Assembly (NCBI GenBank): GCA_031414595.1
Contig: JANNVX010000060.1
Span: 1 to 49,972 of the forward strand
Length of the DNA stretch: 49,972 nucleotides
Direction: 5' to 3'
From: Deinococcales bacterium
GTDB lineage: Bacteria; Deinococcota; Deinococci; Deinococcales; JAAFIG01
Position 1 is the stretch's first letter; each line of letters opens with the position of its first letter. The position numbers were made by a program, and so were the translations under genes. Below are positions 1 through 49,835 of this stretch, piece after piece. The notes under the pieces were generated by a model, which worked only from the letters and a program-made list of their open reading frames with translations, had not been told where the DNA came from and did no database searches.

Positions 1-186
1 GCGCTCGTCTGACGACTCGAGGTGGTGCTTTACCTTTTTTAGTCAGATGCAAAAGTTGAGAACGCTGTTTTTTACTTAATTTGACAAACAAAATTCTGGT
101 ATTCACAAGTATAGCTTATATCCTTATCCGACGATGCACTAAGTAAAGTTTTTAGTGTTTCATCAAGATGCTAAAATAGACATCAA

Positions 187-648
187 ATGAACAACTTTAC
201 TTTACGCCAAGCTGTACCTGCGGATGCAATTGCCATTACCGCTTTAACTCGGGAGGCTTATGAGACTTACATTCCTTTGATTGGGCGTGAGCCTCTACCA
301 ATGCGAGTTGATTATGCGCTGGCTCTGAAATCAAATGCCTTTTGGTTACTCGAGTCTGAACAGGAACTTGCGGCGCTGCTCGAGTTGCAATTACTCGAGC
401 AGCATTTATTGATTGTTAATGTGGCGGTAAAACCAGCTTTTCAGAGGCTAGGACTTGGTAAACGCTTGTTGCTTTTGGCTGAACAAGAAGCTCTTAGGCT
501 CGAGCGGTTCGAGTTGCAGTTGTACACCAATGAACGGTTTACCAAAAATTTGGCTATTTATCAGGGTTTAGGTTATGTGGAAACAAGACGGCAAAAACCA
601 CCTGAATCAGATACTGAAACGGTCTACATGAAAAAAGTTTTGCTTTAG
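187..648 (+). CDS. GNAT family N-acetyltransferase
   Basis: 153-aa ORF; acetyl-CoA motif VAVKPAFQRLGLGKRLL and NLAIYQGLGY. Confidence 0.85.
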   Translation: MNNFTLRQAVPADAIAITALTREAYETYIPLIGREPLPMRVDYALALKSNAFWLLESEQELAALLELQLLEQHLLIVNVAVKPAFQRLGLGKRLLLLAEQEALRLERFELQLYTNERFTKNLAIYQGLGYVETRRQKPPESDTETVYMKKVLL

Positions 649-1943
649 CGTTTTTCGGTAGATAACAAGGTCAGGGTCAGGGTTTTTCCGACTCCAATTT
701 CAGACTCGAGGGTGAACGCACCGAGTAGGCGTTTGAAGCCTTTGACTCCGCTTGCTTCAAGTTTGATGTTGTCGTCAAGGGTTTCAACCATTCGGATATT
801 GATGGCTCGAGTTTTGGTATTTTTGATGGTAAAGATTATTTTGGCGCGTTCGAGGCTGTCAGTGCGTTGTAAAATTTGGGCGCTGCGATTGATTTTAATA
901 TCGAAATCCTTGCCTAAATTAATTTTGACAATCGTGTCTTTAGCAGTGTTGGCAATTTCGGTTTGTCCAACCAGTTGATTGTTTTCGCGGACGGTAAAAA
1001 TTCCTGCGGGTAAGCCTTGTTGGGCAACAAAGCGGTAGGTGCGGAATAAAGCAGCTTTGAAGTTGGCAGTGGTATCAAATTGGTTATTGTACTCGAGAAT
1101 CCGGCGTGTTTCGAGATTGCTTCTTATAAATGGCAAACTGAGGTTGCTGCGTGCTTCTAAGCGCAGGGGTTGCAAGTAGTCAAAACGCTGTAAGCCGCCG
1201 ACTTCACCACTGGCAGCAACTCGAGATTGATTTGCACTACTGGTGACTGGTCGTTCTGCCACCAGTGCAATATTGCGGTTTTGGGATTGCTGATATTCCA
1301 ATTGATTATTTTGTGGTTGAATATCACCTGCAAAGAGTGTGGCTTTAGGCGCTTGGTAAACCACTCCGCTTTGGTTACTGATTTCTGCCCAAGCAGTTAA
1401 ACTCGAGGTTTTGCTGTCGGTGCTAACCGTATCTTGGCTATTTAGGGTATAGCGCGTGTTGTTCCAAGCCACCGCACTGGTAGCGTATTGCAGGGTGGCT
1501 TTGGTGGCTGCCCCAGTGCGTTGCCAAGTATAGGTTGGGGCGTAACGAATTCCGTCTATGTTGGGAAATAAGACTTCGGCATTGGGTAGGAAAATATATT
1601 CGCCTTCGATTTGAAATAAGTACAGTTCGGCTTTAATCACTTTGGCAACCACAAATGTTTCATGAAACCAAACTTTGACTTCTTTGCCTTCAAATAAAGT
1701 CAGTAAACTAGGCGATGCGGTTTGTAAACTGAGTGATGTGACGCTAGGGTCAATCAGTTCTAAACTGCCAGGGATTAAAAATTGGCTCAGGTCAACATTT
1801 GGAGACCAAGTGTATTGGCTACCTATTAAATCCACAGTTTCGCGGATTTCTGCAAATGAAGGATAAATACTCATTTCCGAAGCTCGAGCGGTCAAGATTG
1901 AACTCGAGAGGATTGCCGTGGCAGTCAAGACTATTTTTTTCAT
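645..1943 (-). CDS. Secreted DUF4139-like domain protein
   Basis: Signal peptide, IYPSFAEIRE N-terminus, L.Y...W...Y and LPAG...V segments typical of DUF4139/4140 proteins. Confidence 0.65.
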   Translation of the reverse strand: MKKIVLTATAILSSSILTARASEMSIYPSFAEIRETVDLIGSQYTWSPNVDLSQFLIPGSLELIDPSVTSLSLQTASPSLLTLFEGKEVKVWFHETFVVAKVIKAELYLFQIEGEYIFLPNAEVLFPNIDGIRYAPTYTWQRTGAATKATLQYATSAVAWNNTRYTLNSQDTVSTDSKTSSLTAWAEISNQSGVVYQAPKATLFAGDIQPQNNQLEYQQSQNRNIALVAERPVTSSANQSRVAASGEVGGLQRFDYLQPLRLEARSNLSLPFIRSNLETRRILEYNNQFDTTANFKAALFRTYRFVAQQGLPAGIFTVRENNQLVGQTEIANTAKDTIVKINLGKDFDIKINRSAQILQRTDSLERAKIIFTIKNTKTRAINIRMVETLDDNIKLEASGVKGFKRLLGAFTLESEIGVGKTLTLTLLSTEKR

Positions 1944-1988
1944 GGCTCATGTTACATCGTGACTTATTTCCCTGATGAGATAGAATTT

Positions 1989-3719: not shown

Positions 3720-3789
3720 GGGCAAATCTCCTTAAGCGAACGTTTGTTAGAGCATACCTGAGAGAAGCGGTATGGCGCTACTCGAGCAA

Positions 3790-4488
3790 TTAAATCGCGC
3801 CAGCAACTCGGGCAGTGGGTTGGAACGTAATTGGGTCAAAGCAATTGGCAGTACCAGGGAAAGCCTTGATAAAACGCTCAAGCATATCAGGGTCATCTTT
3901 GAAGACAGTCATCCAGACAGACCAAAAACCGCGTGATACGGCAATTTTGGCTGTTGCATTTCTACGCGAGGCTGTATTTTCCTGTACCAATTCTTGCCGT
4001 TCTTCTTGGGCAACCTCCCAGACATTTTTGCGGTTGAGCCAACGTAGGTCTCGCGCCTTTGGGTCTCGAGTCTCGAGGTCTTCAGGTGGGCAGAGGTCGA
4101 GCTTAAACATGGCAATGGTTCTAGCAGCTTTTTTCTTTTGAGTATCATCCAAATTTGGATTGATAGCCACTCGTCCACCAGAAAGATACTCCAAGACCAT
4201 AAACGTATTGTCTAAATGTACCCAAAAATACTCGTCCAGTACGGTTTTTGCAATACCTTTTTTATGGGAATTACAGTTGATACAAGAAAGTAAAAAGTTT
4301 CCCCAAACCAACTCAAGACTAAAATACTCTGCATCGCCTTTTGGTAAAATATGTTCAACTGCCAAACCACCAGACATTGGACGTTCACAGTAAGAACAAT
4401 ATGCTCCCAAACGGTCTATTAAGTCACGCTTTGCTTCTTGATACTCTGCAAAAACCTTTGTGTTTTCGCCGCGTTCCACAGGTCGCAT
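3790..4488 (-). CDS. HNH endonuclease, Septu PtuB-like
   Basis: CSYCE, VEHILPK, WGNFLLSCINCN HNH/Zn motifs; ATG directly follows the ATPase stop (TAG-ATG). Confidence 0.8.
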   Translation of the reverse strand: MRPVERGENTKVFAEYQEAKRDLIDRLGAYCSYCERPMSGGLAVEHILPKGDAEYFSLELVWGNFLLSCINCNSHKKGIAKTVLDEYFWVHLDNTFMVLEYLSGGRVAINPNLDDTQKKKAARTIAMFKLDLCPPEDLETRDPKARDLRWLNRKNVWEVAQEERQELVQENTASRRNATAKIAVSRGFWSVWMTVFKDDPDMLERFIKAFPGTANCFDPITFQPTARVAGAI

Positions 4489-5817
4489 CTAAGCTCGTTC
4501 CTTCAAAGCTGATAAGCGTTTAGCCTCAAGAAAAGCAATATAAGCAATGTCTTCAGCATAAGGTTCTGAGAGTGTGTCAAGACGTTCTTTGAGGGTTTTC
4601 AGTTCTAAATCTTTTGCGTCTTTTGTTTGCTCGAGAACTCGGTAATACTCTTTTGCGGCGGCTAACATCTCGAGTTCACGTTGCGAACGCTGCGGCATAT
4701 ATACACCCTGTACCTGCTCGGCAATATCTTCGATGCTTTTATCTTGGTATTCGGCTACACCAACATTTTCGTTGAGGTCAATTAACTCACCCAGACGCAC
4801 TGATTGAATAATAAAAGGTGAATGAGTTGTAGCAAAAAATTGCACTTTTGGGAAGGCTTTTCGCAAATTATCCACAACTTTACGCTGCCATTTTGGATGC
4901 AAATGCAAATCAAGTTCATCTATTAAGACCACACCTGGGGTCTCGAGGGTCACATTCTCGAGCAGATGCGGATTGAGTTGCGCCATGCGGTAAGCAATAT
5001 CGGCAACCATTGCTAACATACTGCGTTGCCCATCAGATAAAAGGCTAAACGGCATTGGATTACCATGAATTCTTGCAATAGGTTCGCCTCTTTGAACATC
5101 AAAATAAAGTAGATCGCAACCCTCGAGACAGGCTTGGAGTGCTTTTTTAACAGCTTCAAATACCTTCATTGGTTTTTTATTTTGTAATGAAATAAGTTCC
5201 ATTCGCATAAACCAACGCAACCAAGATTTATTACTAATAGCAACATCTAAAGCATTTTTGTAGCCGTCAAGTCTCGAGCTTAGTTTTATAACTTCGTCAT
5301 CAAAAAGTGAAACTTGATTTGATTCTTCTAAACCTTCTATTTTCTCGAGCCAAAGTCGCGCTGTACTATAAAAAGAGATAATTGGAAGTACGATAGAATC
5401 ACCGTTCCGTACATTGGCAGTTAGCTTGATAGCAAGAGCGCTTAAGCCACCACCATTAAATACCAATCCACTTTTTGGAGCGTCAACAGTCTGCTCTAAA
5501 TGATCATCGTTCCACTCGAGAGAACAATGAATCTTGCAAGGATACTGAAACTCAAGATTTAGTGTTTCACCTTGAAATACACTCTTTACTCGTATTGAAG
5601 AGTTTTTTGGAAGTATTGAAGGCATTTTTGGAAATATAATTTTTTCTTCGTTTTCAGAATTCAATAGAAAACCACTAAAAAGACAGCTTAAAGCCTCGAG
5701 CAGCGCCGTTTTACCCGTCCCATTATCACCAATAATTAAATTAAACCCTTCGCTGAACTCAAAAGTTTTATCTTCAAAGTTCTTAAAGTTTTGTACGCGC
5801 AGGGTTTTGATGTTCAT
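4489..5817 (-). CDS. ABC/AAA-type ATPase, Septu PtuA-like
   Basis: Walker A GDNGTGKT, signature LSDGQR, Walker B VLIDELDLHLHPKWQ, TTHSP; AT-richer than flanks. Confidence 0.8.
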   Translation of the reverse strand: MNIKTLRVQNFKNFEDKTFEFSEGFNLIIGDNGTGKTALLEALSCLFSGFLLNSENEEKIIFPKMPSILPKNSSIRVKSVFQGETLNLEFQYPCKIHCSLEWNDDHLEQTVDAPKSGLVFNGGGLSALAIKLTANVRNGDSIVLPIISFYSTARLWLEKIEGLEESNQVSLFDDEVIKLSSRLDGYKNALDVAISNKSWLRWFMRMELISLQNKKPMKVFEAVKKALQACLEGCDLLYFDVQRGEPIARIHGNPMPFSLLSDGQRSMLAMVADIAYRMAQLNPHLLENVTLETPGVVLIDELDLHLHPKWQRKVVDNLRKAFPKVQFFATTHSPFIIQSVRLGELIDLNENVGVAEYQDKSIEDIAEQVQGVYMPQRSQRELEMLAAAKEYYRVLEQTKDAKDLELKTLKERLDTLSEPYAEDIAYIAFLEAKRLSALKERA

Positions 5818-5879
5818 GGCAAAAGCATATCAAGTTTGGGGTTCTACCTCAAAGCTCGAGAACACGATAACATTGGCGG

Positions 5880-6500: not shown

Positions 6501-6531
6501 AAGCCTGACATCGGCGTGTTAAACTCTACTC

Positions 6532-8159: not shown

Positions 8160-9116
8160 ATGACACTCGATTCTTTTGAACAATACGATTTGGATTCGCT
8201 GAACTTAGCGCGAAGCCTTGAAAGTCTGCCCCACAGTTATGATGGTGCAACTCGGGCTTTACCTGCCCCGTTTGGCGTGATTGGTTTTGGCGAAGGGGCT
8301 TTAGCGGCTGAATTCTCGAGAATACTGATTGATGATGCCACAGCTTCTGGGGCTGGAACGCAATTTGTTCTGGCAGGTGGCTTTGATTTTGGGGCAGTGG
8401 ATGCGGCTTGTGTGATTGCAGAAGCGGCTGGTGCGACGGTCTTTCGTATGGGTCTACCGAGGGGCAGTAAAATCAATTTGTCGGAAGATGAACTGACCTA
8501 TGCTTTGGAAGAAAATCCAGACGAAGAACCAAGTGACGATTTTTTTCCTGTGCCAACAGATAGCTTTAGCACCTACACCTATGCCCAAGCCTTGGCGCAC
8601 TTAACCAATCATGCCGAGGCTGCCGAAAGTGCTGACCAAACACTGGCAACGCTGCGTGACCAATGTAAATCCGAAATCGAAACTTCGCAAAATCCAGCTA
8701 AGCAACTGGCATGGAGTTTATGGACGCGCACTGCAATTTTAATTCCCTCGAGTGGTTTTACTGCCCAAGCGTGGGCGTGGCAAGTGTCCTTATCCAGACT
8801 TGGTAAATCCTTAAGTATTCCCGTGGCTCACAATGTCCTCGAGATTGTTGCCAGTGGTTTTGAAGCACGTCACGAAAGCGGTGATGCACTGGTGGCACTG
8901 CTGCTTGGTGGTGCGGACGAAGGTTTAGCCATTGCCCGTGAAATTCTCGAGACTCGAGTAGATGAAGTGATTGAAGTTCCCGCTCCGACTGGCGAGGCGT
9001 ATGCCGCCAACCTTGGACTCTGGTACTTATCATGTTGGGTTGGCTTGTACTTGGCGCTGCTCTACAAAGCCGACCCTCGAGATTCTAAACCGCTCGAGGC
9101 ACTCAGGAAAAAATGA
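8160..9116 (+). CDS. SIS-domain protein (bifunctional PGI/PMI-like)
   Basis: NPAKQLAWSL and C-terminal LALLYKADP resemble PGI/PMI C-domain; TATGCT-6nt-ATG supports start 8160. Confidence 0.6.
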   Translation: MTLDSFEQYDLDSLNLARSLESLPHSYDGATRALPAPFGVIGFGEGALAAEFSRILIDDATASGAGTQFVLAGGFDFGAVDAACVIAEAAGATVFRMGLPRGSKINLSEDELTYALEENPDEEPSDDFFPVPTDSFSTYTYAQALAHLTNHAEAAESADQTLATLRDQCKSEIETSQNPAKQLAWSLWTRTAILIPSSGFTAQAWAWQVSLSRLGKSLSIPVAHNVLEIVASGFEARHESGDALVALLLGGADEGLAIAREILETRVDEVIEVPAPTGEAYAANLGLWYLSCWVGLYLALLYKADPRDSKPLEALRKK

Positions 9117-16531: not shown

Positions 16532-16905
16532 GGTGTGTAATGTACTCAATGGTGATGAATTTTCGGTGCATCAACAATTGGTAGACCATAGACTCGGCGG
16601 CACATTTTTGAGTAGTTGTGCCAGCCAACCAAGTTAGCACAGAGTGATTTACTCGAGAATGCCTAAGGGCAGTTTTGTGGGTGGGCAGTTTCCTACCTAC
16701 GCGCCACTTGAATTCCCCTTCCAGAAACGTTAAATTAGGGTCATGACCATTCTGTAAGGTTATCGAGCTAACCAATCAGGCTCGAGCATCGCATCGGTTT
16801 CACAAACTGCGATGTCTTTTTCCTTGCGAATAACCATGCGGCAAACCCCGTTAATGTATTTGCCGCTTTGTACTTACTGTTTGGCGGTAAGTCTGACAAA
16901 GGATT

Positions 16906-17370
16906 ATGGTCATGATTAGAACAACTATTGCTGAAGATGCCCCCGCTTTATTCAACATGCTCGAACAAAGCGGTCAATTTGATGCTGCTGGACTCGAACA
17001 CGTTAAAACAACCTTGGAAACTCATCTCGCTCAAAACAGCCAAGCCCTCTGGTTTACCGCCTTCGAGGAACAACCCGTAGGAGTGGCTTACTGCGCTCCT
17101 GAACCAGTATCGAGTGGTACTTGGAACTTGCTGATGCTTTGGACGCGCCAAGACCAACACCGTAAAGGCTATGGTTCGGCACTTGTGAAACAAGTTGAAG
17201 CAGCCCTCCATGAGCGCATGGCGCGGTTATTGATTGTTGAAACTTCCGGGCTGGATGACTTTGCTCCAGCCCGAAATTTCTATGAACGCTGTGGTTTTCG
17301 GCAAGAGGCAACGGTGAAAAACTTTTTTGCCGAAGGAGACGACAAGTTGATTTATACGAAGCCTTTATAA
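16906..17370 (+). CDS. GNAT family N-acetyltransferase
   Basis: HRKGYGSALV, LIVETS, ARNFYERCGF. Confidence 0.88.
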   Translation: MVMIRTTIAEDAPALFNMLEQSGQFDAAGLEHVKTTLETHLAQNSQALWFTAFEEQPVGVAYCAPEPVSSGTWNLLMLWTRQDQHRKGYGSALVKQVEAALHERMARLLIVETSGLDDFAPARNFYERCGFRQEATVKNFFAEGDDKLIYTKPL

Positions 17371-17388
17371 AAATCGCATAAAAGGTGC

Positions 17389-17416
17389 GTAGGCTGGGTG
17401 AAAGCCCAGCTTTTTT
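17389..17416 (+). terminator. GTAG-REP-like hairpin with U-tract (terminator of GNAT gene)
   Basis: GTAG GCTGGG tgaaag CCCAGC TTTTTT. Confidence 0.65.
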
Positions 17417-17483
17417 CTACTCAAGAATGGGTGTAAATGTGGTCTTTGATCTCGAGCGGTAGTAATTGATGGGTAGTAAAGCG

Positions 17484-19925: not shown

Positions 19926-21074
19926 TCGCCCAGCAATCACGGCTCGAGACGCACCTGTGGTCTGCGGCAGGGTGTTCTGCCAACCGTGAAAGGCGTAGTA
20001 CCCCAAGAGTGCAAAGGCGGCAGCTTCCCTCGTAACACTGGTAAAACCATACTTCCCAAATTTAGAATCCTCGAGTTTTAAGACTGGTACGTTTAAGCTC
20101 GAGGTGATTTGCTCCATCAAAACAGTGTTGGCAGTTCCGCCACCTGCCACTAAAATCTCGTCTAAGCCGTGTGGAATCACAAAGCGTTGGTATTGGTCGG
20201 CGATTATAAAAGCGGTTAAAGTGGTCACATTCGCCACAATATCCTTTGGGGAAAGTTCAAAAACACTCGGCAGTTTCTCGAGTGTCCAGTATTCGCGCCC
20301 AGTGCTTTTGGGCGGGGTTAATTCTAAGTACGGGTCTTGTTGCCAGAGTTCCAGTAAGCGCGGCTCAAGTTTGCCCGAAGCCGCAATTTTTCCACCTTCA
20401 TCAAAGCGTTGCCCGAGACGGTTCATGGTTTCGTCTATCAGGCAATTGGCGGGTCCAGTGTCAAATGCCAGCACACCATTGGCATCTAGTCCCGGCAGAT
20501 AGGTCAAATTAGAAATCCCACCCAGATTATGAACCGCCCGATTTACGCCAGCTTCGGCAAAAAAAATGCGATCTGCAAATGGCACAAGCGGTGCGCCTTG
20601 CCCTCCAGCCACAAGGTCGGCACTACGAAAATCTGAAATTACTGGTTTGCCAGTCTCAAGTGCCATAAAAGCAGGGTCGCCAATTTGTAAGGTACTGCGA
20701 ACCGTCCAATTCCGTGCTGAATCCAAACGTGGGATATGATAAACAGTCTGTCCGTGACTGGCAATCAGGTCAGCATCTCGAGCAAGGTCTTTGGCTGCGT
20801 GGGCATAAAATTCGCCCAGCGCAAAAGATAATTGCGTTAAACTCGAGACTCCGATTTTATCCTGCATGGCTTCAAGTACCCACAGGCGCAAATCATCTGG
20901 ATACGGAGTGTATTGGTGTTCACTGACCTTAGCCCGAGGCAAAGACGACTCGAGACTTGGGGCTTGACCACCCAAGCCTAGGGCTGGGAATTTAGGAAGC
21001 TCGAGCAGGACGCAATCCACACCATCGGCGCTCGTGCCGCTCATCATGCCTAAAATTCGAGGGGCGCGTTTCAT
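19911..21074 (-). CDS. anmK: Anhydro-N-acetylmuramic acid kinase
   Basis: GMMSGTSADGVD, SHGQT, GGQGAPLVP, NLGGISN, FDTGPAN, PPKSTGRE. Confidence 0.95.
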   Translation of the reverse strand: MKRAPRILGMMSGTSADGVDCVLLELPKFPALGLGGQAPSLESSLPRAKVSEHQYTPYPDDLRLWVLEAMQDKIGVSSLTQLSFALGEFYAHAAKDLARDADLIASHGQTVYHIPRLDSARNWTVRSTLQIGDPAFMALETGKPVISDFRSADLVAGGQGAPLVPFADRIFFAEAGVNRAVHNLGGISNLTYLPGLDANGVLAFDTGPANCLIDETMNRLGQRFDEGGKIAASGKLEPRLLELWQQDPYLELTPPKSTGREYWTLEKLPSVFELSPKDIVANVTTLTAFIIADQYQRFVIPHGLDEILVAGGGTANTVLMEQITSSLNVPVLKLEDSKFGKYGFTSVTREAAAFALLGYYAFHGWQNTLPQTTGASRAVIAGRLTKP

Positions 21075-21133: not shown

Positions 21134-22693
21134 ATGAAAGCCTTGATTGCAATCTTGCTTGTCGTGGTGTTGGCGGTAGCGGCTGCCCAAGTCGCCCCAA
21201 CCGACCCGCCCGTGCCTCCCGCCCCAACGCAACCCGTCCCAGACCCTGTTGTGCCACCAGAACCACCCACACCAGAACCAAGTTTACCAGCCCCAGTTCC
21301 AGCCCCAGCCAACCCAACCCAACCCGCCCCACCGACCCAACAACCAACTGCCCCAGCCCAACCGCTTAAGCCTGTTCCAACCCCTAAGCCAGTGACTAAA
21401 CCACCAGCCAAGCCCGTGGCAGTTAAACCCGCGCCTAAACCAGTGGCAGTCTTGCCGCTCGAGTTGCGTTTAGAGACCACCGAAGCCGAAATTCGGGGTG
21501 GCGAGCTTCGTAATGTCTTAATTATGCGCTCCTTTAAGTTGCCCAATAAAAGCGTGACCTTAAGCCGTAAAAACCAAAAGCCATCGGTTGGACTCGAGAC
21601 AGCCATCCAAAACATTTGGCGTGGCTTAGCTAGAAATTCTGCCGATGCCATCTGGTTCTTTGAAAAAAGCAGCAAGACTTGGATTGCCAGCCAACAAAGC
21701 GCTTGGACAGTGGATACAAAACAAAGCCGTGCCTTTGTCCTCGAGGCGCTTAAGTACAACAAACCAAGCGCTCGGATTGTGGTGCAACGCAGCAACCCTA
21801 AACGCAATCTGGCAGATTGGCACAAAGCGGGCATTCGTTATCATTTTGGTGGCGGCGAAAGTTATTTTCGCGGTAGCTCGAGTTTTCGCATGACCAACAT
21901 TGTGGCTGGGGCAAAACAAATAGATAACATCACGATTGCTTCTGGTGCAAATTTTAATTTTAACCGTGATGTTGGTATTTCCAGAGAACTCGGTTTTGTG
22001 GATGGATACATCATCAAAGGCGGAATTCTCGAGAAAGACATCGGCGGCGGAATTTGTCAGGTCAGCACCACCGTCTGGCGAGCCGCTTATAATGCTGGTT
22101 TACCAATTGTGCAACGCAATTTTCATTCGTACCGCGTCTCGTATTATGACCCTCCGGGTTTTGAAGCCACGGTCTTTTCGCCGTACAAGAACCTGATTTT
22201 TAAGAACGATACTGGCGCACCACTTTTTGTCCAAGTAACTTGGTATCTACGCAGCCAAAAACTCGAGATGCACTTTTTCGGACGCAAGCCAGACCGTAAA
22301 GTCAGTATTTCAGATGGCTATATTTACAATGTCCGCCAACCACCCGCGCCGCGCTTTGTGGCAGACCCAGAAATTAAATTTGGACGTGCCAAACGCTTAT
22401 CGGGTGCAGAACGAGGCATGAATGTCCGCATTAACCGCGTGGTGAGTTACAACAGTGGCACAGTGGCAAGGGACACGACTTTTAGTTCTTATGTGCCTTG
22501 GGGTGAACTCTGGGCGGTTAATCCCAACGATGCTCGAGTCCGCAAGAATATTACTGTTCCCAATGCCATGAGCCTACCAAGCATACCCAATGCAACTGCC
22601 TCGAGTACCCCAAGCCCATTGACTTTAATAACAGCCGCACAATTACCGACCTTGAGTAAACCCGCCGTTGGTGGCGCATCAGAACAACGGTGA
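21134..22693 (+). CDS. VanW family secreted protein with Pro-rich N-terminus and G5-like C-terminus
   Basis: Signal peptide, GGGICQVSTT, HSYRVSYY, LIFKNDT. Confidence 0.88.
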   Translation: MKALIAILLVVVLAVAAAQVAPTDPPVPPAPTQPVPDPVVPPEPPTPEPSLPAPVPAPANPTQPAPPTQQPTAPAQPLKPVPTPKPVTKPPAKPVAVKPAPKPVAVLPLELRLETTEAEIRGGELRNVLIMRSFKLPNKSVTLSRKNQKPSVGLETAIQNIWRGLARNSADAIWFFEKSSKTWIASQQSAWTVDTKQSRAFVLEALKYNKPSARIVVQRSNPKRNLADWHKAGIRYHFGGGESYFRGSSSFRMTNIVAGAKQIDNITIASGANFNFNRDVGISRELGFVDGYIIKGGILEKDIGGGICQVSTTVWRAAYNAGLPIVQRNFHSYRVSYYDPPGFEATVFSPYKNLIFKNDTGAPLFVQVTWYLRSQKLEMHFFGRKPDRKVSISDGYIYNVRQPPAPRFVADPEIKFGRAKRLSGAERGMNVRINRVVSYNSGTVARDTTFSSYVPWGELWAVNPNDARVRKNITVPNAMSLPSIPNATASSTPSPLTLITAAQLPTLSKPAVGGASEQR

Positions 22694-23626: not shown

Positions 23627-24193
23627 ATGGTTTTACCGATTCGACTTTATGGCGACCCTATTTTACGTGCCAAAGCCCGTCCCGTAACTGATTTTAAGCC
23701 ATTGCCGCAACTGATGGCGGACATGCTCGAGACGATGCACGAAGCAAAAGGCGTTGGTTTAGCCGCGCCGCAAATTGGACTTTCACAACAAATTTTTGTT
23801 TGGGCAGAGTACGACGACGAAGAGGAGGAGGGTGAAGAAAGCACCTCTAAAATTTTATCCGAACACATCATGGTCAATCCTCAACTCGAGATGCTTGAAC
23901 AAACCGCCGTTCTTGGAATCGAAGGCTGCCTGAGTATCCCAGGGATTTTTGAAGATGGGGTGGCTCGAGCCAGAGCGGTACGGGTGCATTACCAAAACGA
24001 ATATGGAGAAGCCAAAATTCTTGAGTTAGAAGATTACAATGCTCGGGTGGTGCAACACGAATCTGATCATTTGATTGGGCGCTTGTATTTTGATTTACTG
24101 CCCAAGTCGGTTCTCGAGACACACCGCAGTGACTTAGCGCAAATGCAAAAAGATGCCAAGGCGTTCTTGAGGGAATTGAAGCAAAAGGGGTAG
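23627..24193 (+). CDS. def: Peptide deformylase
   Basis: GVGLAAPQIG, EGCLSIPG, QHESDHL. Confidence 0.97.
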   Translation: MVLPIRLYGDPILRAKARPVTDFKPLPQLMADMLETMHEAKGVGLAAPQIGLSQQIFVWAEYDDEEEEGEESTSKILSEHIMVNPQLEMLEQTAVLGIEGCLSIPGIFEDGVARARAVRVHYQNEYGEAKILELEDYNARVVQHESDHLIGRLYFDLLPKSVLETHRSDLAQMQKDAKAFLRELKQKG

Positions 24194-24202
24194 AAGTGGC
24201 AG

Positions 24203-24303
24203 GGAGACCACAAGCGACCATGCCCGTGAAGTGCGTGTTTATGGTCAAGAAGGGTCTCCTCTACAAAAACAATATCTTGTAGGGGAGGGTCTTGTACCCT
24301 CCC
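24203..24303. repeat. Pair of inverted GTAG-REP hairpins (REPIN/BIME-like); the first carries a 38-bp insert
   Basis: GGAGACC acaag [38bp] GGTCTCC T CTAC, then GTAG GGGAGGGT cttgt ACCCTCCC. Confidence 0.7.
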
Positions 24304-24333
24304 TGTAAGAGAAATGGTACTTAGGTGAAAATA

Positions 24334-37016: not shown

Positions 37017-37164
37017 GACTTCTCTCGAGGTATACCTGTGCGCTTTGGGTGGTTTATGCTGGGAAACGGTACTCCCCCTCTCTTGCCCCTAAAGCAGCAC
37101 CTTCGGGCTTTGGGCGCTCGCTACGTCGATGGGTACTCAAAAAATCAAATCAGGAGAAATTAAA

Positions 37165-38364
37165 ATGGCTAAGAAAAAAGTGGTACTTGCATACAGTGGT
37201 GGACTCGACACCAGCATGATTCTCAAATGGCTACAACTCGAGCGCGATTACGAAGTGGTCTGTTTTACTGCCGACATTGGGCAAGGCGAAGAAGTCGAGG
37301 AGGCTCGAGTTAAAGCGCTGAATACTGGCGCGATTGCCGCCTATGCGCTGGACTTGCGCGAAGAATTTGTTAAAGATTTTGTTTTCCCAATGCAGCGCTC
37401 CAGTGCGCTTTACGAAGGCTATTATTTACTTGGCACGAGCATTGCCCGTCCGCTCATCGCTAAGCACCTTGTCGAGATTGCCTTCACGGAGAAAGCCGAA
37501 GCCATTTCGCACGGTGCAACCGGCAAAGGCAACGACCAAGTGCGCTTTGAAATCAGCGCGTATGCCCTGAACCCAGAAATTAAAGTTATTGCCCCGTGGC
37601 GCGAATGGGGACCAAGCGGACGCAAAGAACTGATGGAATTTGCCGCCAAGCACAACATCCCCGTGCCAGTCAGTGCTGCCAAGCCATACAGTGTGGATTC
37701 TAATTTACTGCACAACAGCTTTGAAGGCGGGATTCTCGAAGACCCTTGGGCAGAACCACCGAGTGGCATGTTCAAACTGACCAAACCAGTCGAAGAAACC
37801 CCAGACACACCAGAATATGTCGAAATTGAATTCTTAGGCGGCGACCCAATTGCCATCAACGGCGAGAAATTCAGTCCAGCCGCATTGCTCGAGAAAGCCA
37901 ATCAGATAGCAGGGAATCACGGCATTGGCGTGGTGGATTTGGTTGAGAACCGCTTTGTTGGCATGAAATCTCGCGGGGTTTACGAAACACCGGGCGGCAC
38001 ACTTTTGTACCACGCTCGTCGGGCAGTCGAAAGCATTACGCTAGACCGTGAAGTGTTGCACACGCGGGACTCCATGCAACCCAAATACGCCGAACTGGTT
38101 TACAACGGTTTTTGGTTTACTGCCGAACGCGAAGCCATGCAAGTTTACTTTGACCATGTGGCAAAAAGCACCACTGGTATTGCTCGCATGAAACTATTTA
38201 AGGGACAAGCACTGGTGGTCGGGCGGAAATCCCCCATTAGCTTATATGACCCAACGCTCGTGACCTTTGAAAAAGAAACCGTTTACGACCAAGCCGACGC
38301 TGGCGGATTTATCAAGCTCAATGCCCTACGCGCTCGAGTCCGCGCTCGGTTGCAACGGGATTAG
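37165..38364 (+). CDS. argG: Argininosuccinate synthase
   Basis: [49 protein letters not shown]. Confidence 0.98.
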
Positions 38365-41734: not shown

Positions 41735-43106
41735 AAAACCGTGGGGTGGGCGTTTTGAATCGGCTACCAGCCAACTCGTCGAGGCATTTAACGCCAGTGT
41801 GGATTTTGATAAACGCCTGGTTCTCGAGGACATCGCAGGGTCAAAAGCCCATGTCAAAATGCTCGGCACAGTCGGAATTCTCGAAGATGGCGAAGTACAG
41901 CAAATTCTCGAGGGACTAAAAAAAGTGCTGCTCGAAGTCGAAGCTGGGACTTTTCCGTGGCGTGTCGAACTCGAGGATGTGCATATGAACGTCGAGACGC
42001 GCCTCAAAGAACTGATTGGCGCAACGGCTGGCAAACTGCACACCGCCCGCTCGAGAAATGACCAAGTGGCATTGGATTTTAGGCTTTGGGTCAAGAAGAC
42101 TTGTCTGAGGGCTGCCCAGAAACTCGAGACTTTACGAGCCGTGATGCTTTCAGAAGCTGAACGCAATATGGGCGTAATCATGCCGGGTTACACGCATTTG
42201 CAAGTGGCACAACCTATTTTGGTTTCGCATTGGTTTATGGCGTACTTTGAAATGTTTTCCCGTGACATCAGCCGTTTTCACGATGCCGCCAAACGCATGA
42301 ACGAGTCGCCGCTTGGGGCTGGGGCTTTGGCAGGTACGCCGTGGCAAATAGACCGTTTCCAGACCGCCACAGAACTTGGTTTTGCTGCCCCAACCCGCAA
42401 TAGTTTAGATTCTGTTGGCAGTCGTGACTTTGCCCTCGAGTACCTGAGTGCTTGTGCAATCTGCATGGCGACCTTATCCCGATTGAGCGAAGAACTGATT
42501 CTCTACTCGAGTTTTGAATTTGGCTTTATCACCTTGCCCGATTCGCACACCACTGGCAGCAGCATCATGCCTCAAAAGAAAAACCCTGATGTTGCAGAAT
42601 TAGCAAGGGGCAAGGCAGGACGGGTTTTTGGTGATTTAATGGCGCTTTTGACTGTGGTCAAAGGCACACCGCTTGCCTACAACAAAGATTTCCAAGAGGA
42701 CAAAGAACCAGTATTCGATGCCGCCGACACTTTAGAAGTGATTCTCGAGTTGTACGCCGATATGCTGCCGCTCTGCACTTGGAATGCTGCCACCACTGAA
42801 ATGGCTGCGGCTCGAGGTTACAGCACGGCTACAGACCTCGCTGATTACCTTGCCCGCCAAGGCGTACCGTTCCGCGAAGCCCATGAAGTGGTTGGCAAAC
42901 TGGTTGGCTTGTGCGTCAAGACAAACAGGCAGCTCTGGCAACTCGAGGAAAGCGAACTACAAGCCGCACATGAAAAACTAGATTCTCGAGCGCTCGAGGT
43001 TGTGACTGTGCAATCCAGTGTGGCTGCCCGAACCAGTTACGGTGGCACAGCCCCAAAACGCGTCCAAGAAGCGATTCTCGAGGCAAGAAAACAAATCCAA
43101 CCGTAG
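41718..43106 (+). CDS. argH: Argininosuccinate lyase
   Basis: WGGRF, HTARSRNDQ, PGYTHLQ, GSSIMPQKKNPD, YNKDFQEDK. Confidence 0.98.
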   Translation: MSATNKKPWGGRFESATSQLVEAFNASVDFDKRLVLEDIAGSKAHVKMLGTVGILEDGEVQQILEGLKKVLLEVEAGTFPWRVELEDVHMNVETRLKELIGATAGKLHTARSRNDQVALDFRLWVKKTCLRAAQKLETLRAVMLSEAERNMGVIMPGYTHLQVAQPILVSHWFMAYFEMFSRDISRFHDAAKRMNESPLGAGALAGTPWQIDRFQTATELGFAAPTRNSLDSVGSRDFALEYLSACAICMATLSRLSEELILYSSFEFGFITLPDSHTTGSSIMPQKKNPDVAELARGKAGRVFGDLMALLTVVKGTPLAYNKDFQEDKEPVFDAADTLEVILELYADMLPLCTWNAATTEMAAARGYSTATDLADYLARQGVPFREAHEVVGKLVGLCVKTNRQLWQLEESELQAAHEKLDSRALEVVTVQSSVAARTSYGGTAPKRVQEAILEARKQIQP

Positions 43107-43265
43107 GGGTCAGGCACGCGACCATGCCCGCCAGGTGCGTGTTTATGGTCAAGAAGCCTGACCCGCTACCAAACGAAAATACAAATAAATTTCCCAAAAT
43201 CAAAACTATATCGAAAATGTAAAACCAATCATCTCTCACGAGGGCGAGGCATACCTCGCCCCTAC
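43103..43265. repeat. Pair of inverted GTAG-REP hairpins (REPIN-like); the first carries a 38-bp insert
   Basis: GTAG GGGTCAGG cacg [38bp] CCTGACCC ... GGGCGAGG cata CCTCGCCC CTAC. Confidence 0.7.
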
Positions 43266-43927: not shown

Positions 43928-43967
43928 TCATTTGGGGAAATCTTGTGACCTCTGTTAAACTCGGGGT

Positions 43968-44915: not shown

Positions 44916-45786
44916 TACCACCCCAGAAGCCCAAACCTTAAAACGCAAGCGCCAATTTCAAAAGCGGCTCGAGAATTTAGCCGTTTACATGGTTTTAATT
45001 ATCGTTGGGTTCATTAGCGTCTACCCTTTTTTATGGACGCTCCGCACCAGTTTAAGCACTTCTGGAGGGATTTTTGAATTCCCGCCAAGTTTAATCCCGA
45101 CCGAAGCCAGCTTAAAGAACTTTATTACCGTCACCGAAATCGTGCCGATTTTGCGCCAAGCCTTAAACAGCTTAATTATTTGTTTTTTTGGTGTGCTGGG
45201 TGCAATTATTGTGGCGGCGCTGGGCGCGTACCCTTTGGCAAAAATGAAATTCTGGGGCAGAGATGCTGTGTTTTATGCCCTGATTGCTACACTGGTACTG
45301 CCCAACGAAGCAGGTTTAATCGTTAATTTTATCACCGTCTCGAGACTGGGGTTACTGGCTACCGATGTCGGACAATTCGCCGCCGTGATTCTGCCAGCCT
45401 TTGGCAGTGTCGCCAATGTTTTTTTGATGCGCCAAGCCTACCTTGGCATTCCAGCCGAATTGCTCGAGGCTGCCCGAATAGACGGAGCGTCTGAACTGAG
45501 GATTTGGTGGAGTATCATGCTGCCGCTAACCATGCCGACCATAGCCGCTGTTAGCATTTTACAATTTGTGGCATTCTGGAACAGTTTTCTATGGGCATTT
45601 ATTGTCATGCGTGACCGCAATTTATACCCTTTAAGTGCAGGTATGCTCGATTTATCAGGTGCGTTTTCCACCAATACACGAGCCATCAGTGCGGGTGCGG
45701 TACTGATGATGATACCAATTTTACTGGTGTTCTTGTTCTTCCAACGTTACTTTATGCGCGGACTCGAGGGCGCAGTCAAGGGCTAA
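44908..45786 (+). CDS. Carbohydrate ABC transporter permease 2
   Basis: IPAELLEAARIDGA, WNSFLW, FQRYFMRG. Confidence 0.93.
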   Translation: MLNTTPEAQTLKRKRQFQKRLENLAVYMVLIIVGFISVYPFLWTLRTSLSTSGGIFEFPPSLIPTEASLKNFITVTEIVPILRQALNSLIICFFGVLGAIIVAALGAYPLAKMKFWGRDAVFYALIATLVLPNEAGLIVNFITVSRLGLLATDVGQFAAVILPAFGSVANVFLMRQAYLGIPAELLEAARIDGASELRIWWSIMLPLTMPTIAAVSILQFVAFWNSFLWAFIVMRDRNLYPLSAGMLDLSGAFSTNTRAISAGAVLMMIPILLVFLFFQRYFMRGLEGAVKG

Positions 45787-45793
45787 ACAAAAA

Positions 45794-45821
45794 TCCCCTC
45801 GAGCCGACCGACTCGAGGGGA
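45794..45821. terminator. Hairpin between convergent genes, likely terminator
   Basis: TCCCCTCGAG / CTCGAGGGGA 10-bp stem with A-tract on the left. Confidence 0.7.
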
Positions 45822-45839
45822 CATCTCCCGATAAAAGAT

Positions 45840-47414: not shown

Positions 47415-47632
47415 TGTTCACCCTCCATAAAATCATTCATCTCGAGTGGATTATCCATGCCAGTTGTGCCAATTGGAAGCGAAACCCCTGTTGTTAGGGT
47501 GTACAACTTTTGCTGCTCGAGATACGGGGCTTGGTATGGAAGGCGCTGAATTATGATACTGGTTTCCATTGGTATCCTTATGGTTTTTGAATAGAAGATT
47601 TACCAGCATAATTTATTTGGTAGTCTGGTCAA

Positions 47633-48283
47633 ATGCTACCTACTATTTTGAACTGGGAAAAGACTTTCATAGTCTCAGACGAAAAAACAGCCAGCTTGTT
47701 ATCGCATGGTACACACACCATCAATGTTCTTGCCCCATTTTTAGGACAAGAAAACAACACCAGAAACGCCTCTGAGGAATCTGGAATAAAACTGAATGTA
47801 CTGGCTTACTGGGTGCATAAATTCTGCGCGGCTGGCATACTGATTCACACCAAAACCGAAAAACGACGCGGTAGCCCAGTGCAGTATTACCGAGCCATTG
47901 CCGATGAAATTCTTGTACCTACCAGCCTGATTGCCAGTGCTTCGGATACAGAATTGCTGACTCGAGTACAACAACAAGAATACGAAATGTTCACTGCGAA
48001 TGCTGTCCGAGCAGGGCGCAAATTTTCCCCTGAATGGTATTTGCATTATTTCCGTTCTGAGCTTGGGCAGCACTGGACAATGCGCCCAATCGAAAATAAC
48101 GACCCAGTTAAAATTCTCGAGCGTCCCTTACACGATTGGTCGCATTTGGATTTAGCGCCAACTGCCCTAAAAGAATTACGGCGTGAACTCTGGGCATTAG
48201 AAGCCAAGTACAATGCCTTGAGCGGACAAGGTACAAAACGCAAACGGGTAACGCTGCATTTGGGCTTAGCTGAAATTAGCTAA
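47633..48283 (+). CDS. Winged-helix (ArsR-like) putative regulator
   Basis: LAPFLG, LAYWVHKFCAAGIL, RRGSPVQYYRA; divergent from the lipoprotein. Confidence 0.65.
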   Translation: MLPTILNWEKTFIVSDEKTASLLSHGTHTINVLAPFLGQENNTRNASEESGIKLNVLAYWVHKFCAAGILIHTKTEKRRGSPVQYYRAIADEILVPTSLIASASDTELLTRVQQQEYEMFTANAVRAGRKFSPEWYLHYFRSELGQHWTMRPIENNDPVKILERPLHDWSHLDLAPTALKELRRELWALEAKYNALSGQGTKRKRVTLHLGLAEIS

Positions 48284-49761
48284 CTTTTAGACTGGGGCAA
48301 GAGGCTTTGCAAACGCCTAAAAGTGTCTTTGGGCAATACACTTAAAACCACCACCAATGCCAGCAGCAACAGCCACAAGCCAGCATTTCCGCCCGACAAA
48401 AATGACAATGGCGAAAGACTCGAGAGGACAACAGGTAGCGCATAAGGTCTGCCAAGTGCCAGTACCCCTAGAACCGCCGCCAGAATTGCACCAAGCCAGA
48501 TGGCAAGTGTCGGAGACAGATAACCCATCAAAACTGCGCTTGCACCTAAACCTAAGCCAATACCAAATAGGGCGATTGTCAACCTATAAGGCTCGAGCTT
48601 TATCTTTTGAGACAACCCATACAGACTTAGCCAAACCAAAGCCAAAACAATGCTAAACTGCATAAAGACATAGGTTTTACTCAAGGTCTCACGCAGCGAA
48701 GTCTCGGGAAAACTTAACACCACGCTTTGTGAAGTGACAATTTTTGGAAATTGCCAGACTAAACTCGAGCCAATCTGACTTGGATAGAGACTACCACGCA
48801 AAAATTTAATCGGTTTAGGCGAATTGACCTCGAGCTTAAAGTTATTGACAATCGTGCGTCCAGAAAAAGCATAATTCCAAGTGTCCGAGCCTTGATTTTT
48901 GTATTTAATTTGGGCAGTCACTTTTTCCTTGGGTTTAAGCGTTCCATACCAAGTAAAGCTGTTGTTGCTTGGGGCGATTTCTTTAGCCACTTCACCTCGA
49001 GCCAAAAATTCAAAATCGGATAATGTTCCCGAATTATCTGGAAAGGGAAATTCAAAAGTCACCTCGAGTGGCGTATCATTGGGGTTACTAAAGCTGTACT
49101 GTCCTTGAAAACTGGCACGGTAAAACGAGCGCCCCAAACCTGTATCGCCAAATTCAAATTGGGTCTTGAGGTTACTGGCTTCAATCGGTAAGCGCTGGTA
49201 CTCAACAATCTGGGCTTCGCGTACAAAAAAGAGGCTTTTGCCATTTTGAAGAATACTATCTACCACGCGGCGCACATTCTTACTTTGTGGTTCTGCCAAG
49301 TATTCTTTGACATACGGCAAAATTGCTTCGCGCCCTTCGGATTCAAGACGCTTTAAGACTTCTGGCGGCACACGAATACTGCGAATATAGGTCTTGGTTT
49401 CGGTGTAGCCAAGGCTTGGTTCACGCTGCACAGTATCGCGTCCGGGTGGGTCTTCGAGCTTTGAATACCGCGCATTGTTCTGACTGACATAGCGTAAACC
49501 AACGGCATACTGGGCAATTTTAAGACCAAACAACACCAACACAAGCACCACAGCAATCGGCAACCACGGCAATAAACGACTTGCTTTGAGGCTAACCCAA
49601 GTTCTGAGCAAGACAAAACCTTCACGGTGCAGACTGTAAAGCAGTAGCATCAACACCAATGCAAGTCCGACAACCAGCAGTGCAAACGGTATCGCCGCCA
49701 CCAGAATTGATAACCAAGCCTCAAGTCTCGAGAAAAAACCACCTATCGTATTTTGTACCAT
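48280..49761 (-). CDS. Membrane protein with extracytoplasmic VIT/CreD-like domain
   Basis: N-terminal TMs, F.GQYSFSNP...F.FPFP..SGTL domain, C-terminal TM bundle. Confidence 0.65.
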   Translation of the reverse strand: MVQNTIGGFFSRLEAWLSILVAAIPFALLVVGLALVLMLLLYSLHREGFVLLRTWVSLKASRLLPWLPIAVVLVLVLFGLKIAQYAVGLRYVSQNNARYSKLEDPPGRDTVQREPSLGYTETKTYIRSIRVPPEVLKRLESEGREAILPYVKEYLAEPQSKNVRRVVDSILQNGKSLFFVREAQIVEYQRLPIEASNLKTQFEFGDTGLGRSFYRASFQGQYSFSNPNDTPLEVTFEFPFPDNSGTLSDFEFLARGEVAKEIAPSNNSFTWYGTLKPKEKVTAQIKYKNQGSDTWNYAFSGRTIVNNFKLEVNSPKPIKFLRGSLYPSQIGSSLVWQFPKIVTSQSVVLSFPETSLRETLSKTYVFMQFSIVLALVWLSLYGLSQKIKLEPYRLTIALFGIGLGLGASAVLMGYLSPTLAIWLGAILAAVLGVLALGRPYALPVVLSSLSPLSFLSGGNAGLWLLLLALVVVLSVLPKDTFRRLQSLLPQSKS

Positions 49762-49835
49762 ACCTCGAGTCTAGCCCCTTGTATGAGTTTAGATGAATGG
49801 CTTGATGTTTGAATTCCAGCATGAATGTACTCATT

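Follow-up and report, generated by a model that had tools for sequence, protein, structure and literature searches.

The window studied here is a 49,972-nucleotide stretch of DNA from a Deinococcales bacterium, contig C60 of an assembly (G000) of 4,488,778 bases in 120 contigs. Its gene content is that of ordinary housekeeping (argB, argF, argG, argH, def, fmt, queG, miaA, malic enzyme and others), and its guanine-plus-cytosine (GC) content is 46-50% along its length. The subject of this report is the six-base palindrome CTCGAG, which is scattered through these genes and the spaces between them. A previous reading of the window, made from its letters alone (the sequence-only reading), had counted about 306 copies and likened the word to HIP1, the highly iterated palindrome of cyanobacteria. 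An exact search gave the same figures: 306 copies, beginning with the site at 16-21 and extending to position 49769, distributed as 62, 64, 60, 65 and 55 per successive 10 kb. Dinucleotide-preserving shuffles of the window held a mean of 5.91 copies (standard deviation 2.80, maximum 13), and none of 100 shuffles reached 306.

The Leu-Glu frame (CTC-GAG) accounted for 163 of the window's sites, while 52 were read as xCT-CGA-G, 49 as xxC-TCG-AGx and 42 were fully non-coding; sites were found on both gene strands. Density was 7.0/kb in the 5,961 non-coding bases compared to 6.0/kb in coding DNA. The 53 open reading frames (ORFs) of at least 100 amino acids in the window held 264 sites, compared to 27.4 ± 4.8 under synonymous-codon shuffling (maximum 41 in 200 shuffles). 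The sequence-only reading had stated that the word occurs in all frames, on both coding strands and intergenically, and that codon usage is an unlikely cause, and these counts agree on each point. The ratio between observed and expected sites (O/E) did not fall to about 1 after codon shuffling, nor were the sites confined to the Leu-Glu frame, the two outcomes that it had named in advance as counting against its proposal. It was half right on tandem sites: the one at 4065-4077 is real, but nothing of the kind lies at 42965-42978, and the true pair begins at 42985 and 42993.

Abundance of the hexamer in the genome and its effect on the proteome

In the 4.49-Mb genome there were 23,235 copies of CTCGAG, approximately 24 times the expectation from composition, equivalent to about 1 per 190 bases or 5,176 sites per Mb. 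Markov models of order 0, 1, 2 and 3 predicted 972, 534, 1,281 and 6,135 copies, respectively. CTCGAG was the commonest hexamer of the genome by threefold; the next six were its own one-base shifts, followed by AAAAAA with 5,616 copies. The pentamer CTCGA was followed by G in 23,235 of 25,876 cases, and 69% of all TCGA copies lay inside CTCGAG, with TCGA below expectation outside the word. The flanks carried almost no information, as no base exceeded a frequency of 0.30 at any flanking position. The exact hexamer is, therefore, the unit of enrichment. A maximal-order Markov null gave an O/E of only 1.16 and was rejected as a test; the figure is uninformative, since the two pentamers CTCGA and TCGAG hardly occur outside the hexamer and are themselves made by it. 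A dicodon-preserving null would absorb the signal likewise and would not be a valid test for refutation. One extended form of the word was avoided, the 8-bp palindrome CCTCGAGG, with 178 copies in the genome compared to 1,108-1,905 for the other 15 flank combinations, which suggests a distinct restriction specificity, 8 bases long, superimposed on the hexamer.

Genes were approximated as the longest non-overlapping ORFs of at least 100 amino acids, 3,832 in number and covering 88% of the genome. Density was 5.16/kb inside these ORFs and 5.37/kb outside. Coding sites were split among the three frames as 12,067, 3,977 and 4,281 (59% in the Leu-Glu frame), compared to 1,313, 409 and 268 expected from 20 synonymous-codon shuffles (20,325 observed in total vs 1,990 expected, maximum 2,048). 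The codon CTC made up 65% of Leu codons that precede Glu but 8% of those elsewhere, and GAG made up 70% of Glu codons that follow Leu but 20% of those elsewhere. Among the 40,411 positions at which a synonymous choice could create the word, 50.3% carried it: 59.9% of 20,151 Leu-Glu pairs, 46.5% of 8,545 [PAST]-Arg-[VADEG] triplets and 36.5% of 11,715 x-Ser-[Ser/Arg] triplets. The amino acid sequences were affected as well. Leu-Glu was the most over-represented dipeptide (20,151 vs 9,070 expected, or 2.2-fold) whereas Glu-Leu stood at 0.98 of expectation, and the Arg- and Ser-centered triplets stood at 1.30 and 1.40, respectively. CTCGAG is kept and re-created even at the cost of protein changes, and the proteome itself is shifted.

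Density was flat over gene starts, bodies and ends, except that it fell to 3.8/kb in the first 30 nt and rose slightly around stop codons (5.9-7.1/kb); some sites were located in terminator-like stems. The 68 predicted tRNA genes held 7 sites compared to 27.5 at genome density. Five tRNA genes (Ser, Ser, Cys, Thr and Glu) lying within 3 kb at positions 144-2945 of contig C56 each contained CTCGAG, and this cluster may be a tRNA array of a mobile element. Three low-GC stretches (Table 1) plus one short contig had only 1.0-2.6 sites/kb; the low-GC, site-poor stretches are probably recently acquired DNA.

Conservation, turnover and spacing of the sites

We compared the genome with that of a relative in the same genus (G005, 93.6% identity), using 107 of its contigs with 454,447 bases; ten contigs were picked as orthologues of the window and the other 97 by numerical order. 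BLAST hits were kept if they reached 500 bp and 80% identity, and overlapping ones were removed, leaving 132 alignments and 361,201 columns with 6.4% mismatch. The relatives used are incomplete metagenome-assembled genomes (MAGs), 84-89% complete, with 4% contamination in G005 and in a second relative, G001. Background rates are averages per codon position, and related genomes are non-independent samples.

CTCGAG was intact in G005 at 1,781 of 1,980 sites (89.9%), compared to 72.2% for all hexamers, and was the best conserved of the 1,310 hexamers occurring at least 100 times. Mismatches were less frequent inside sites than outside at third codon positions (5.5 vs 14.4%), first positions (1.83 vs 3.49%) and second positions (0.97 vs 1.92%), and in non-coding DNA (2.26 vs 5.95%). 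Relative to class-matched background, loss at the six positions was 0.34, 0.38, 0.41, 0.42, 0.47 and 0.44 (overall approximately 0.4). These ratios gave no position-specific excess of C-to-T decay, and thus no sign of a hypermutable methylated cytosine. The word was also created more often than expected. Among 697 words with one mismatch to CTCGAG and the other five bases conserved, 104 were CTCGAG in G005 compared to 27.6 expected (3.8-fold), including 14 non-coding transitions vs 1.8 expected and 11 transversions vs 3.6. In contrast, only 10 near-misses had changed to a third base, compared to 29.7 expected; therefore, other constraints keep most of the remaining near-misses in place, and the genome is near saturation. 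Sites unique to G000 (199) and to G005 (177) were similar in number, so that gains and losses balance.

These data support the claim of the sequence-only reading that some process keeps and creates sites, since CTCGAG is the best-conserved hexamer and near-cognate words convert to it at 3.8 times the background rate. What the bias acts on is the double-stranded word as a whole, in retention and creation alike, on all kinds of mutation and regardless of coding. It is, hence, a bias of fixation or transmission or a correction of whole sites, and not base-specific mutation. Arithmetic from the gain and loss ratios put its scaled strength at approximately 2-2.5 overall and approximately 3 in non-coding DNA, the latter figure resting on 14 gains.

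Sites changed by substitution: 376 sites faced substitutions in the other genome and 9 faced gaps, and an insertion mechanism was rejected. When G001 was added as an outgroup for 18,282 bases of the window, 94 sites were common to all three genomes and 19 were ambiguous; 4 gains and 6 losses fell on the terminal branches of G000 and G005, numbers too few to show more than consistency. Conservation extended further within the family. Six loci from family MAGs, at 74-81% identity, kept 197 of 288 sites (68%) compared to 19-32% of all hexamers. Two to four of the four argG sites (Table 1) were kept in each of these six loci at 80-86% nucleotide identity, and none of the four was present in the Deinococcus or Thermaceae orthologues compared.

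In the first 224 kb of the alignments, at least 3 of the six bases differed at 41 of 225 sites that differ between G000 and G005, and such multi-base replacements can have clean flanks, as at position 22028 of the window (TTAGAA vs CTCGAG). Clusters of at least 3 adjacent differences were common generally, with 714 in the same 224 kb, 54 of which make or break CTCGAG. No more than 2 mismatches in the 20 bp on each side accompanied 221 of the 714. The clusters, many of them whole-codon swaps between identical flanks, greatly exceeded what independent substitution would produce at 6% divergence. They may represent multi-nucleotide mutation, fine-scale recombination or effects of the MAG consensus. 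A dedicated mechanism for writing sites was dropped, as the enrichment of clusters that make or break a site was only about that of CTCGAG in general. A link of site changes to diverged segments (flank divergence 0.102 vs 0.087, p = 0.027) was also set aside, being weak and predicted by any model.

Neighboring sites were not independent of one another. Gaps up to 10 bp occurred at 0.16 times, and gaps of 10-20 bp at 0.53 times, the frequency expected from a geometric distribution, while gaps of 50-300 bp were in excess (1.08- to 1.24-fold) and those of 400-1,000 bp in deficit (0.67- to 0.86-fold). The odds ratio for two neighboring synonymous opportunities both being occupied was 0.32 at 6-12 nt, 0.64 at 13-24 nt, 0.81 at 25-48 nt and approximately 1 beyond. 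One site suppresses another within about 25-50 bp. Genome-wide spacing gave no 10- to 11-bp helical or nucleosome-like phasing; the sole short period was 3 bp. The 13-bp palindrome CTCGAGNCTCGAG, formed by two sites at spacing 7, was present in 101 copies compared to 17-20 at spacings 8 and 9. These double sites had unique contexts and any central base, and 81 were in ORFs and 20 outside. Their fivefold excess runs counter to the general exclusion of close pairs.

Distribution in Deinococcota and candidate genes

All 18 other genomes of the same GTDB family, from five genera, had 4.3-7 sites/kb. A search of named records with ArgG allowed 80 loci to be compared, and the only enriched ones were six recorded as "MAG: Deinococcales bacterium" (ArgG identity 91-94%, GC 47-52%, 5.1-8.0 sites/kb, O/E 20-35). 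Five Deinococcus loci had 1 site in total compared to 26 expected, the Thermaceae loci had O/E of 3-4, and loci of other taxa had a median O/E of 0.9. We then extended the comparison to 251 Deinococcota genomes, using samples of their DNA (Table 1). Depending on the lineage, CTCGAG was hyper-abundant, moderate, neutral or avoided, with O/E ranging from approximately 29 through 0.9 to below 0.1. Genus g7 appears to be Deinococcus, and g13 to g15 appear to be Meiothermus-like. The avoidance in a sister genus suggests that a family of proteins recognizing CTCGAG is old in the phylum.

Table 1. Positions of features in the window and genome, and CTCGAG frequency in genomes and lineages of the phylum scan
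Feature	Source	Position	Strand	Details
Dispersed CTCGAG array, 306 sites	Window	16..49769		Mean spacing 163 bp, median 127 bp, longest gap 670 bp
Double site CTCGAGTCTCGAG	Window	4065..4077		Spacing 7, 13-bp perfect palindrome
Second spacing-7 double site CTCGAGACTCGAG	Window	8946..8958		Pair 8946/8953
Close pair CTCGAGCGCTCGAG	Window	42985..42998		Spacing 8, 42985/42993
Site specific to G000	Window	22028..22033		Both close relatives (G005, G001) have synonymous Leu-Glu TTAGAA, 3 differences in 6 bp
Decayed site	Window	20364..20369		CTCAAG here, CTCGAG in both relatives; loss on the G000 lineage
Decayed site	Window	23894..23899		CTTGAA here, CTCGAG in both relatives
Four argG sites	Window	37237..38338	+	37237, 37304, 37888, 38333
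Longest site-free stretch	Window	16787..17450		670 bp between sites at 16781 and 17451
Low-site stretches	G000	C46:27500-42500, C14:22500-40000, C8:37500-42500		1.0-1.6 CTCGAG/kb, GC down to 35%
Host family f1	Phylum scan			5.2-6.5 sites/kb
G253 (f3, g36, GC 51%)	Phylum scan			7.4 sites/kb, O/E 28.9, Leu-Glu ratio 2.28
G196 (f3, g35, GC 67%)	Phylum scan			3.5 sites/kb, O/E 10
G198 and G086 (f5, sister family, GC 64%)	Phylum scan			O/E 9-10, CTCGAG the top hexamer
Family f2	Phylum scan			1-2.6 sites/kb
Genus g9	Phylum scan			About 1 site/kb
G197 (2.3 Mb, same genus g36 as G253)	Phylum scan			0.23 sites/kb, O/E 0.9
Genus g7, 92 genomes	Phylum scan			0.01-0.2 sites/kb

Two genomes of one genus, G253 and G197, both with GC of approximately 51%, differed 30-fold in density, the poor one being the smaller (2.3 vs 3.5 Mb). 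Over 2.8 kb of shared synteny at approximately 70% identity, G253 and G196 shared 10 of 19 site positions and G197 had 0 of 14, a small sample hinting that G197 may have lost the word. Positions of argG sites common to the host family and G253 fit parallel filling of synonymous opportunities and are not evidence of common origin. A viral collection was scanned for three sites within 78 bp; among the matches listed, most were contigs of 53-71% GC and none had the composition of the family. No HK97 capsid gene was found in the G000 genome. Two IMG/VR contigs (L298 and L259, with 66% and 71% GC) had 5.7-6.0 CTCGAG/kb and O/E of 17-18, and strong enrichment may, therefore, also occur in other GC-rich hosts or their phages.

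The sequence-only reading had proposed an orphan methyltransferase of the XhoI type as the agent, and this part of it was not supported. The XhoI-family endonuclease (PF04555) was not found in any of the 19 genomes of the family. Its only match was in G021, a genome of the same order but outside the family, where it lies beside a beta-class methylase that we used as a natural probe for CTCGAG methylation. This methylase had no close relative in the family; in a set of 31 relatives, the best matches from the family were weak, at 33-47% identity over a motif stretch. Its family occurred in 32 of the 251 phylum genomes (22 of 30 in g9, 0 of 5 sampled in the host family, 0 of 103 in f3 and 1 of 29 in g13 to g15). 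Genus g9, where it is concentrated, has only approximately 1 site/kb, and its presence did not correlate with enrichment. An XhoI-type system was, therefore, rejected. Of 31 genomes searched for the Vsr endonuclease (PF03852), 1 had a match, and it was not among the 19 of the family. Patch repair of the Dcm/Vsr type was excluded as the main cause by the absence of Vsr, the equal protection of six positions and the gains by transversion.

The genome encodes at least 19 DNA methylases (type I, type IIG, five C5, several beta-class and one Dam-like), none with an assignable CTCGAG specificity. The CTCGAG density of these 19 candidate genes was genome-like in all but a few small ones, so that residence time judged by site density did not discriminate among them. 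A C5 methylase on contig C22 is conserved in the genus and has a 64% homologue in G253 but none in G197, G198 or G086. It was dropped because contexts differ, the G253 copy has a likely nuclease partner, and G010 of the host family lacks any C5 methylase. Matches to a Dam-family methylase at E ≤ 0.001 occurred in 18 of the 19 genomes of the family and were strong in approximately 15. The Dam-like gene sits in an overlapping three-gene operon, and GATC occurs at 0.14 times expectation, so that we read it as part of a GATC restriction system and not as a CTCGAG enzyme.

Other palindromes were strongly avoided as well. GGCC was present 152 times compared to 13,951 expected and GATC at the level just given, while GGGCCC was found 0 times, TGCGCA 2, GGCGCC 3, GAGCTC 6 and GTGCAC 6. 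Matches to BREX- or MADS-like methylases were found in addition to the type I and type IIG systems, and the restriction-modification load is unusually heavy. At 3790-5817 on the minus strand of the window, an AAA_15/AAA_21 ATPase gene (4489-5817) is followed directly by an ORF of 232 amino acids (3790-4488) without a family match, an arrangement typical of two-gene defense or abortive-infection modules. A short dispersed intergenic repeat of approximately 40-60 nt was seen in the window at 24200-24310, 37081-37118 and 43118-43156, with approximately 28 local matches in the genome and many in genus relatives.

What maintains the word

CTCGAG is very probably a highly iterated palindrome (HIP), itself the object of a fixation bias that is independent of coding. 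The sequence-only reading had expected HIP1-like behavior, and the word was indeed over-represented, present in all frames and in non-coding DNA, and conserved beyond control words (89.9% vs 72.2%). HIP1 (GCGATCGC) and the alternative cyanobacterial HIPs (PMC4390886; PMC5861425) are likewise short palindromes, tens-fold over-represented in all frames and between genes. The conservation test described in the available portion of Xu et al. (PMC5861425), in which codons were more conserved inside the word, had the same outcome here. In both cases, lineages of one phylum differ in degree and a relative with a small genome lacks the word. The low HIP1 frequency of obligate symbionts, as given in the part of Elhai's paper at hand (PMC4390886), may be set beside the small genome of G197 (2.3 Mb). 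The differences are also plain. CTCGAG is another word, of 6 bases instead of 8, in another phylum, and at 5,176 sites/Mb it exceeds the 300-2,700 per Mb listed for HIP1 in Table 2 of that paper's accessible text (PMC4390886). Two widely conserved orphan methylases (DmtA and DmtC) have their sites within HIP1, whereas no conserved cognate was found here. A periodicity of 10-90 kb has been reported for HIP1, whereas our analysis of spacing was of short range and revealed interference. Sister lineages here avoid the very same word. HIP1 proper was not encountered, as CGATCG occurs only 3 times in the genome and the nearest named records are Deinococcales MAGs.

The word also resembles the DNA uptake sequences (DUS) of Neisseriaceae and uptake signal sequences (USS) of Pasteurellaceae in being over-represented genome-wide and inside genes of naturally competent lineages, with effects on peptides, spaced more evenly than random and scarcer in foreign DNA. 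DUS and USS are 9-12 nt long, non-palindromic, present at approximately 1 per kb and often arranged as inverted pairs in terminators, and their preferential uptake has been demonstrated; they are explained by transmission bias rather than by a benefit of each site. In contrast, CTCGAG is a six-base palindrome without flank preference (no base above 0.30). Competence genes are present in the genome. Very-short-patch repair by Dcm and Vsr raises CCWGG and lowers CTWGG in E. coli, an effect that is modest and specific for T:G mismatches at the methylated cytosine. There, too, a repair bias shifts the frequency of a methylase-site word, but the excess here is approximately 24-fold, involves six positions and transversions, and occurs in a family with no Vsr. 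The XhoI restriction-modification system shares the six-base word itself; restriction, however, predicts avoidance, which is seen in the sister group and is the opposite of what is found in the enriched family. We found no published report of CTCGAG hyper-abundance in bacteria by full-text search, a search outside which subscription journals and supplements lie. The matches to CTCGAG in the literature were to the honey-bee genome, a haloarchaeal methylase table and, in sources available in part, lists of methylated motifs from hot-spring communities. Elhai 2015 (PMC4390886) contains none of the terms CTCGAG, Deinococcus and Thermus. The sequence-only reading had mentioned CTCGAG enrichment in Meiothermus methylome work; no paper saying so was found, and two genomes of the sister family (G198 and G086) do have the word as their top hexamer.

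As to the agent, we tentatively favor natural transformation or homologous recombination, at somewhat less than an even chance. A protein recognizing CTCGAG would read the whole double-stranded word, and the bias would arise at fixation or transmission. DNA of the organism's own lineage would be recognized in transformation or recombination, whether during uptake or while being processed ahead of recombination, and recognition could depend on methylation of CTCGAG. Transmission would then favor fragments or alleles bearing the word, a molecular drive like that of uptake sequences and like that now proposed for HIP1. We favor this reading because it invokes the sole established class of process known to load bacterial genomes, genes and peptide content included, with a short word. 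Thermus and Deinococcus are naturally competent, and the competence of the phylum, the presence of ComEC, DprA and a ComEA-like HHH_3 protein in the genome, and the analogy of HIP1 are further reasons. The interference between sites and the scarcity of the word in foreign-looking DNA fit a benefit for each stretch of DNA and not for each site. According to the available part of one preprint, methylated HIP1 sites raise transformation more than 100-fold (10.1101/2024.09.10.611283), and HIP1 has been proposed as an uptake sequence in another source available in part (PMC13756078).

Several points weigh against transformation or recombination. Known uptake sequences are 9-12 nt long, lack palindromic symmetry and occur about five times less densely. 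With a site every 190 bp, any fragment has many of them already, and the gain in uptake from one further site is uncertain. An uptake or recombination bias was not directly seen here, and neither a reader protein nor a cognate methylase was identified in the genome. No DNA methylase family was found in all 19 family genomes, with gaps in G010, G013, G006 and G002; G010 lacks C5 methylases, no PF01555 member was found in the single-contig G013, and the Dam-family matches of G006 and G010 are weak. Searches for competence genes did not discriminate, as E. coli and other controls also matched. ComEC is present in the non-enriched G197, and loss of competence was accordingly dropped as the cause of the site poverty there. 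By rough calculation, non-coding turnover is faster than pure fixation bias predicts (loss 0.32-fold, gain 7.7-fold), a gain that rests on 14 events. In addition, ORFs stand in for genes, and the relatives are incomplete MAGs. Weak selection at the level of the organism, or repair of whole sites, would predict conservation and gain bias equally well, and these two observations alone cannot separate organism-level selection, transmission drive and whole-site repair bias. The complete proposal, of a HIP-like, fixation-biased word driven by recognition of self DNA in transformation or recombination, is accordingly put forward as possible and short of probable.

Biased correction of whole sites would generate many of the same observations. 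A methylase together with a nickase or a relative of a restriction enzyme would repair half-intact CTCGAG towards the word, which we judge unlikely. Such a scheme generalizes the methyl-directed repair model for HIP1 put forward in the accessible part of Elhai's paper (PMC4390886), with a heteroduplex or newly replicated DNA as substrate. Correction of any mismatch would protect six positions equally, in non-coding DNA as well, as observed; the non-coding excess of gains over the deficit of losses fits a conversion-like input; at least 19 methylase genes of unassigned specificity are at hand; and a word that is enriched or strongly avoided across the phylum would suggest an old family that recognizes it. 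However, searches of the 19 family genomes gave neither Vsr nor an XhoI-family nuclease, and no methylase family turned up in all of them. The C-to-T excess that 5-methylcytosine would leave was not seen at any position, swaps of several bases such as TTAGAA to CTCGAG are not simple mismatch repair, and interference at short range is not predicted. In the portion of Xu et al. available (PMC5861425), positional conservation is held to argue against continual replenishment by repair, and the same conservation was found here. A dense array of binding sites for an abundant protein that structures or protects the chromosome, with a footprint of tens of bp and kept by weak organism-level selection, would account for the exclusion within approximately 25-50 bp, the more regular spacing at 50-300 bp, the even coating of the genome regardless of gene structure and the long-lived conservation of positions. 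Xu et al. gave HIP1 a nucleoid-structure reading, as far as the available text goes (PMC5861425), and by our own calculation the scaled coefficients, approximately 2-3.5 for each site, are of a size accepted for codon bias. Yet there was a 3-bp period only and no helical phasing at 10-11 bp, no candidate protein was identified, and G197 (O/E 0.9) and the avoiding lineages do without the word, so that any such function would have to be dispensable. We regard this array as improbable, and the idea that its strength per site is comparable to selection on codon usage shares that low standing.

A mark of self in defense, in which the word, modified or not, labels resident DNA at a density that protects or identifies every short stretch, is quite improbable in our view. 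It would suit the very heavy restriction pressure on GGCC, GATC and many nearly absent hexamer palindromes, the type I, type IIG and BREX- or MADS-like methylase matches encoded, and the poverty of CTCGAG in low-GC, apparently recent islands. The available part of a 2026 preprint, in which the phylum is unnamed, also places CTCGAG among the methylated motifs common to hosts and phages of one hot-spring subnetwork. However, no system is known to us that requires one mark per 190 bp. Phages easily copy a mark that is useful against invaders, restriction normally yields avoidance and not enrichment, and no cognate gene set was identified. Finally, the sites could be thought a by-product of composition, of codon or amino acid usage, of a repeat family or of assembly, given that the Leu-Glu frame holds 59% of coding sites and CTC-GAG is a natural codon pair in GC-rich relatives. 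This explanation is refuted for practical purposes by the tenfold excess over codon shuffles in every frame, the equal density in non-coding DNA, the choice of CTC before Glu, the unique flanks, the recurrence in 18 other family genomes and six separately deposited MAG records, and the same positions being kept across species.

Recognition of self DNA in transformation or recombination can also be extended to the phylum as a whole, with CTCGAG as a common "self" word read by one conserved recognition system in uptake or recombination. On balance we think this broader version unlikely. Where the system drives transmission, the word would rise to saturation, with one site per 150-190 bp, half of the synonymous opportunities filled and proteins rewritten. 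Where the system is lost, the word would decay to chance, as in G197, and where a cutting activity dominates it would be purged, as in the Deinococcus-like genus.

For work on these organisms, CTCGAG distorts codon and dipeptide statistics and provides a strong binning signature for the MAGs of the family, and XhoI would cut such DNA to fragments of approximately 190 bp unless the sites are modified. The O/E contrasts within the phylum, including the 30-fold one inside a single GTDB genus, are suited to phyletic profiling for the genes responsible, and the moderately enriched lineages (O/E 9-10) appear to include cultivable, Thermaceae-like thermophiles. HIPs have hitherto been a puzzle confined to cyanobacteria. 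CTCGAG is a second and denser case, with another word in an unrelated phylum, that overrides protein sequence; it shows that the phenomenon is general and gives comparative leverage. If CTCGAG is a self word of uptake or recombination, it would be the first six-base palindromic signal of this kind, and would provide a second, independent and experimentally tractable case for the 30-year-old problem of HIP1.

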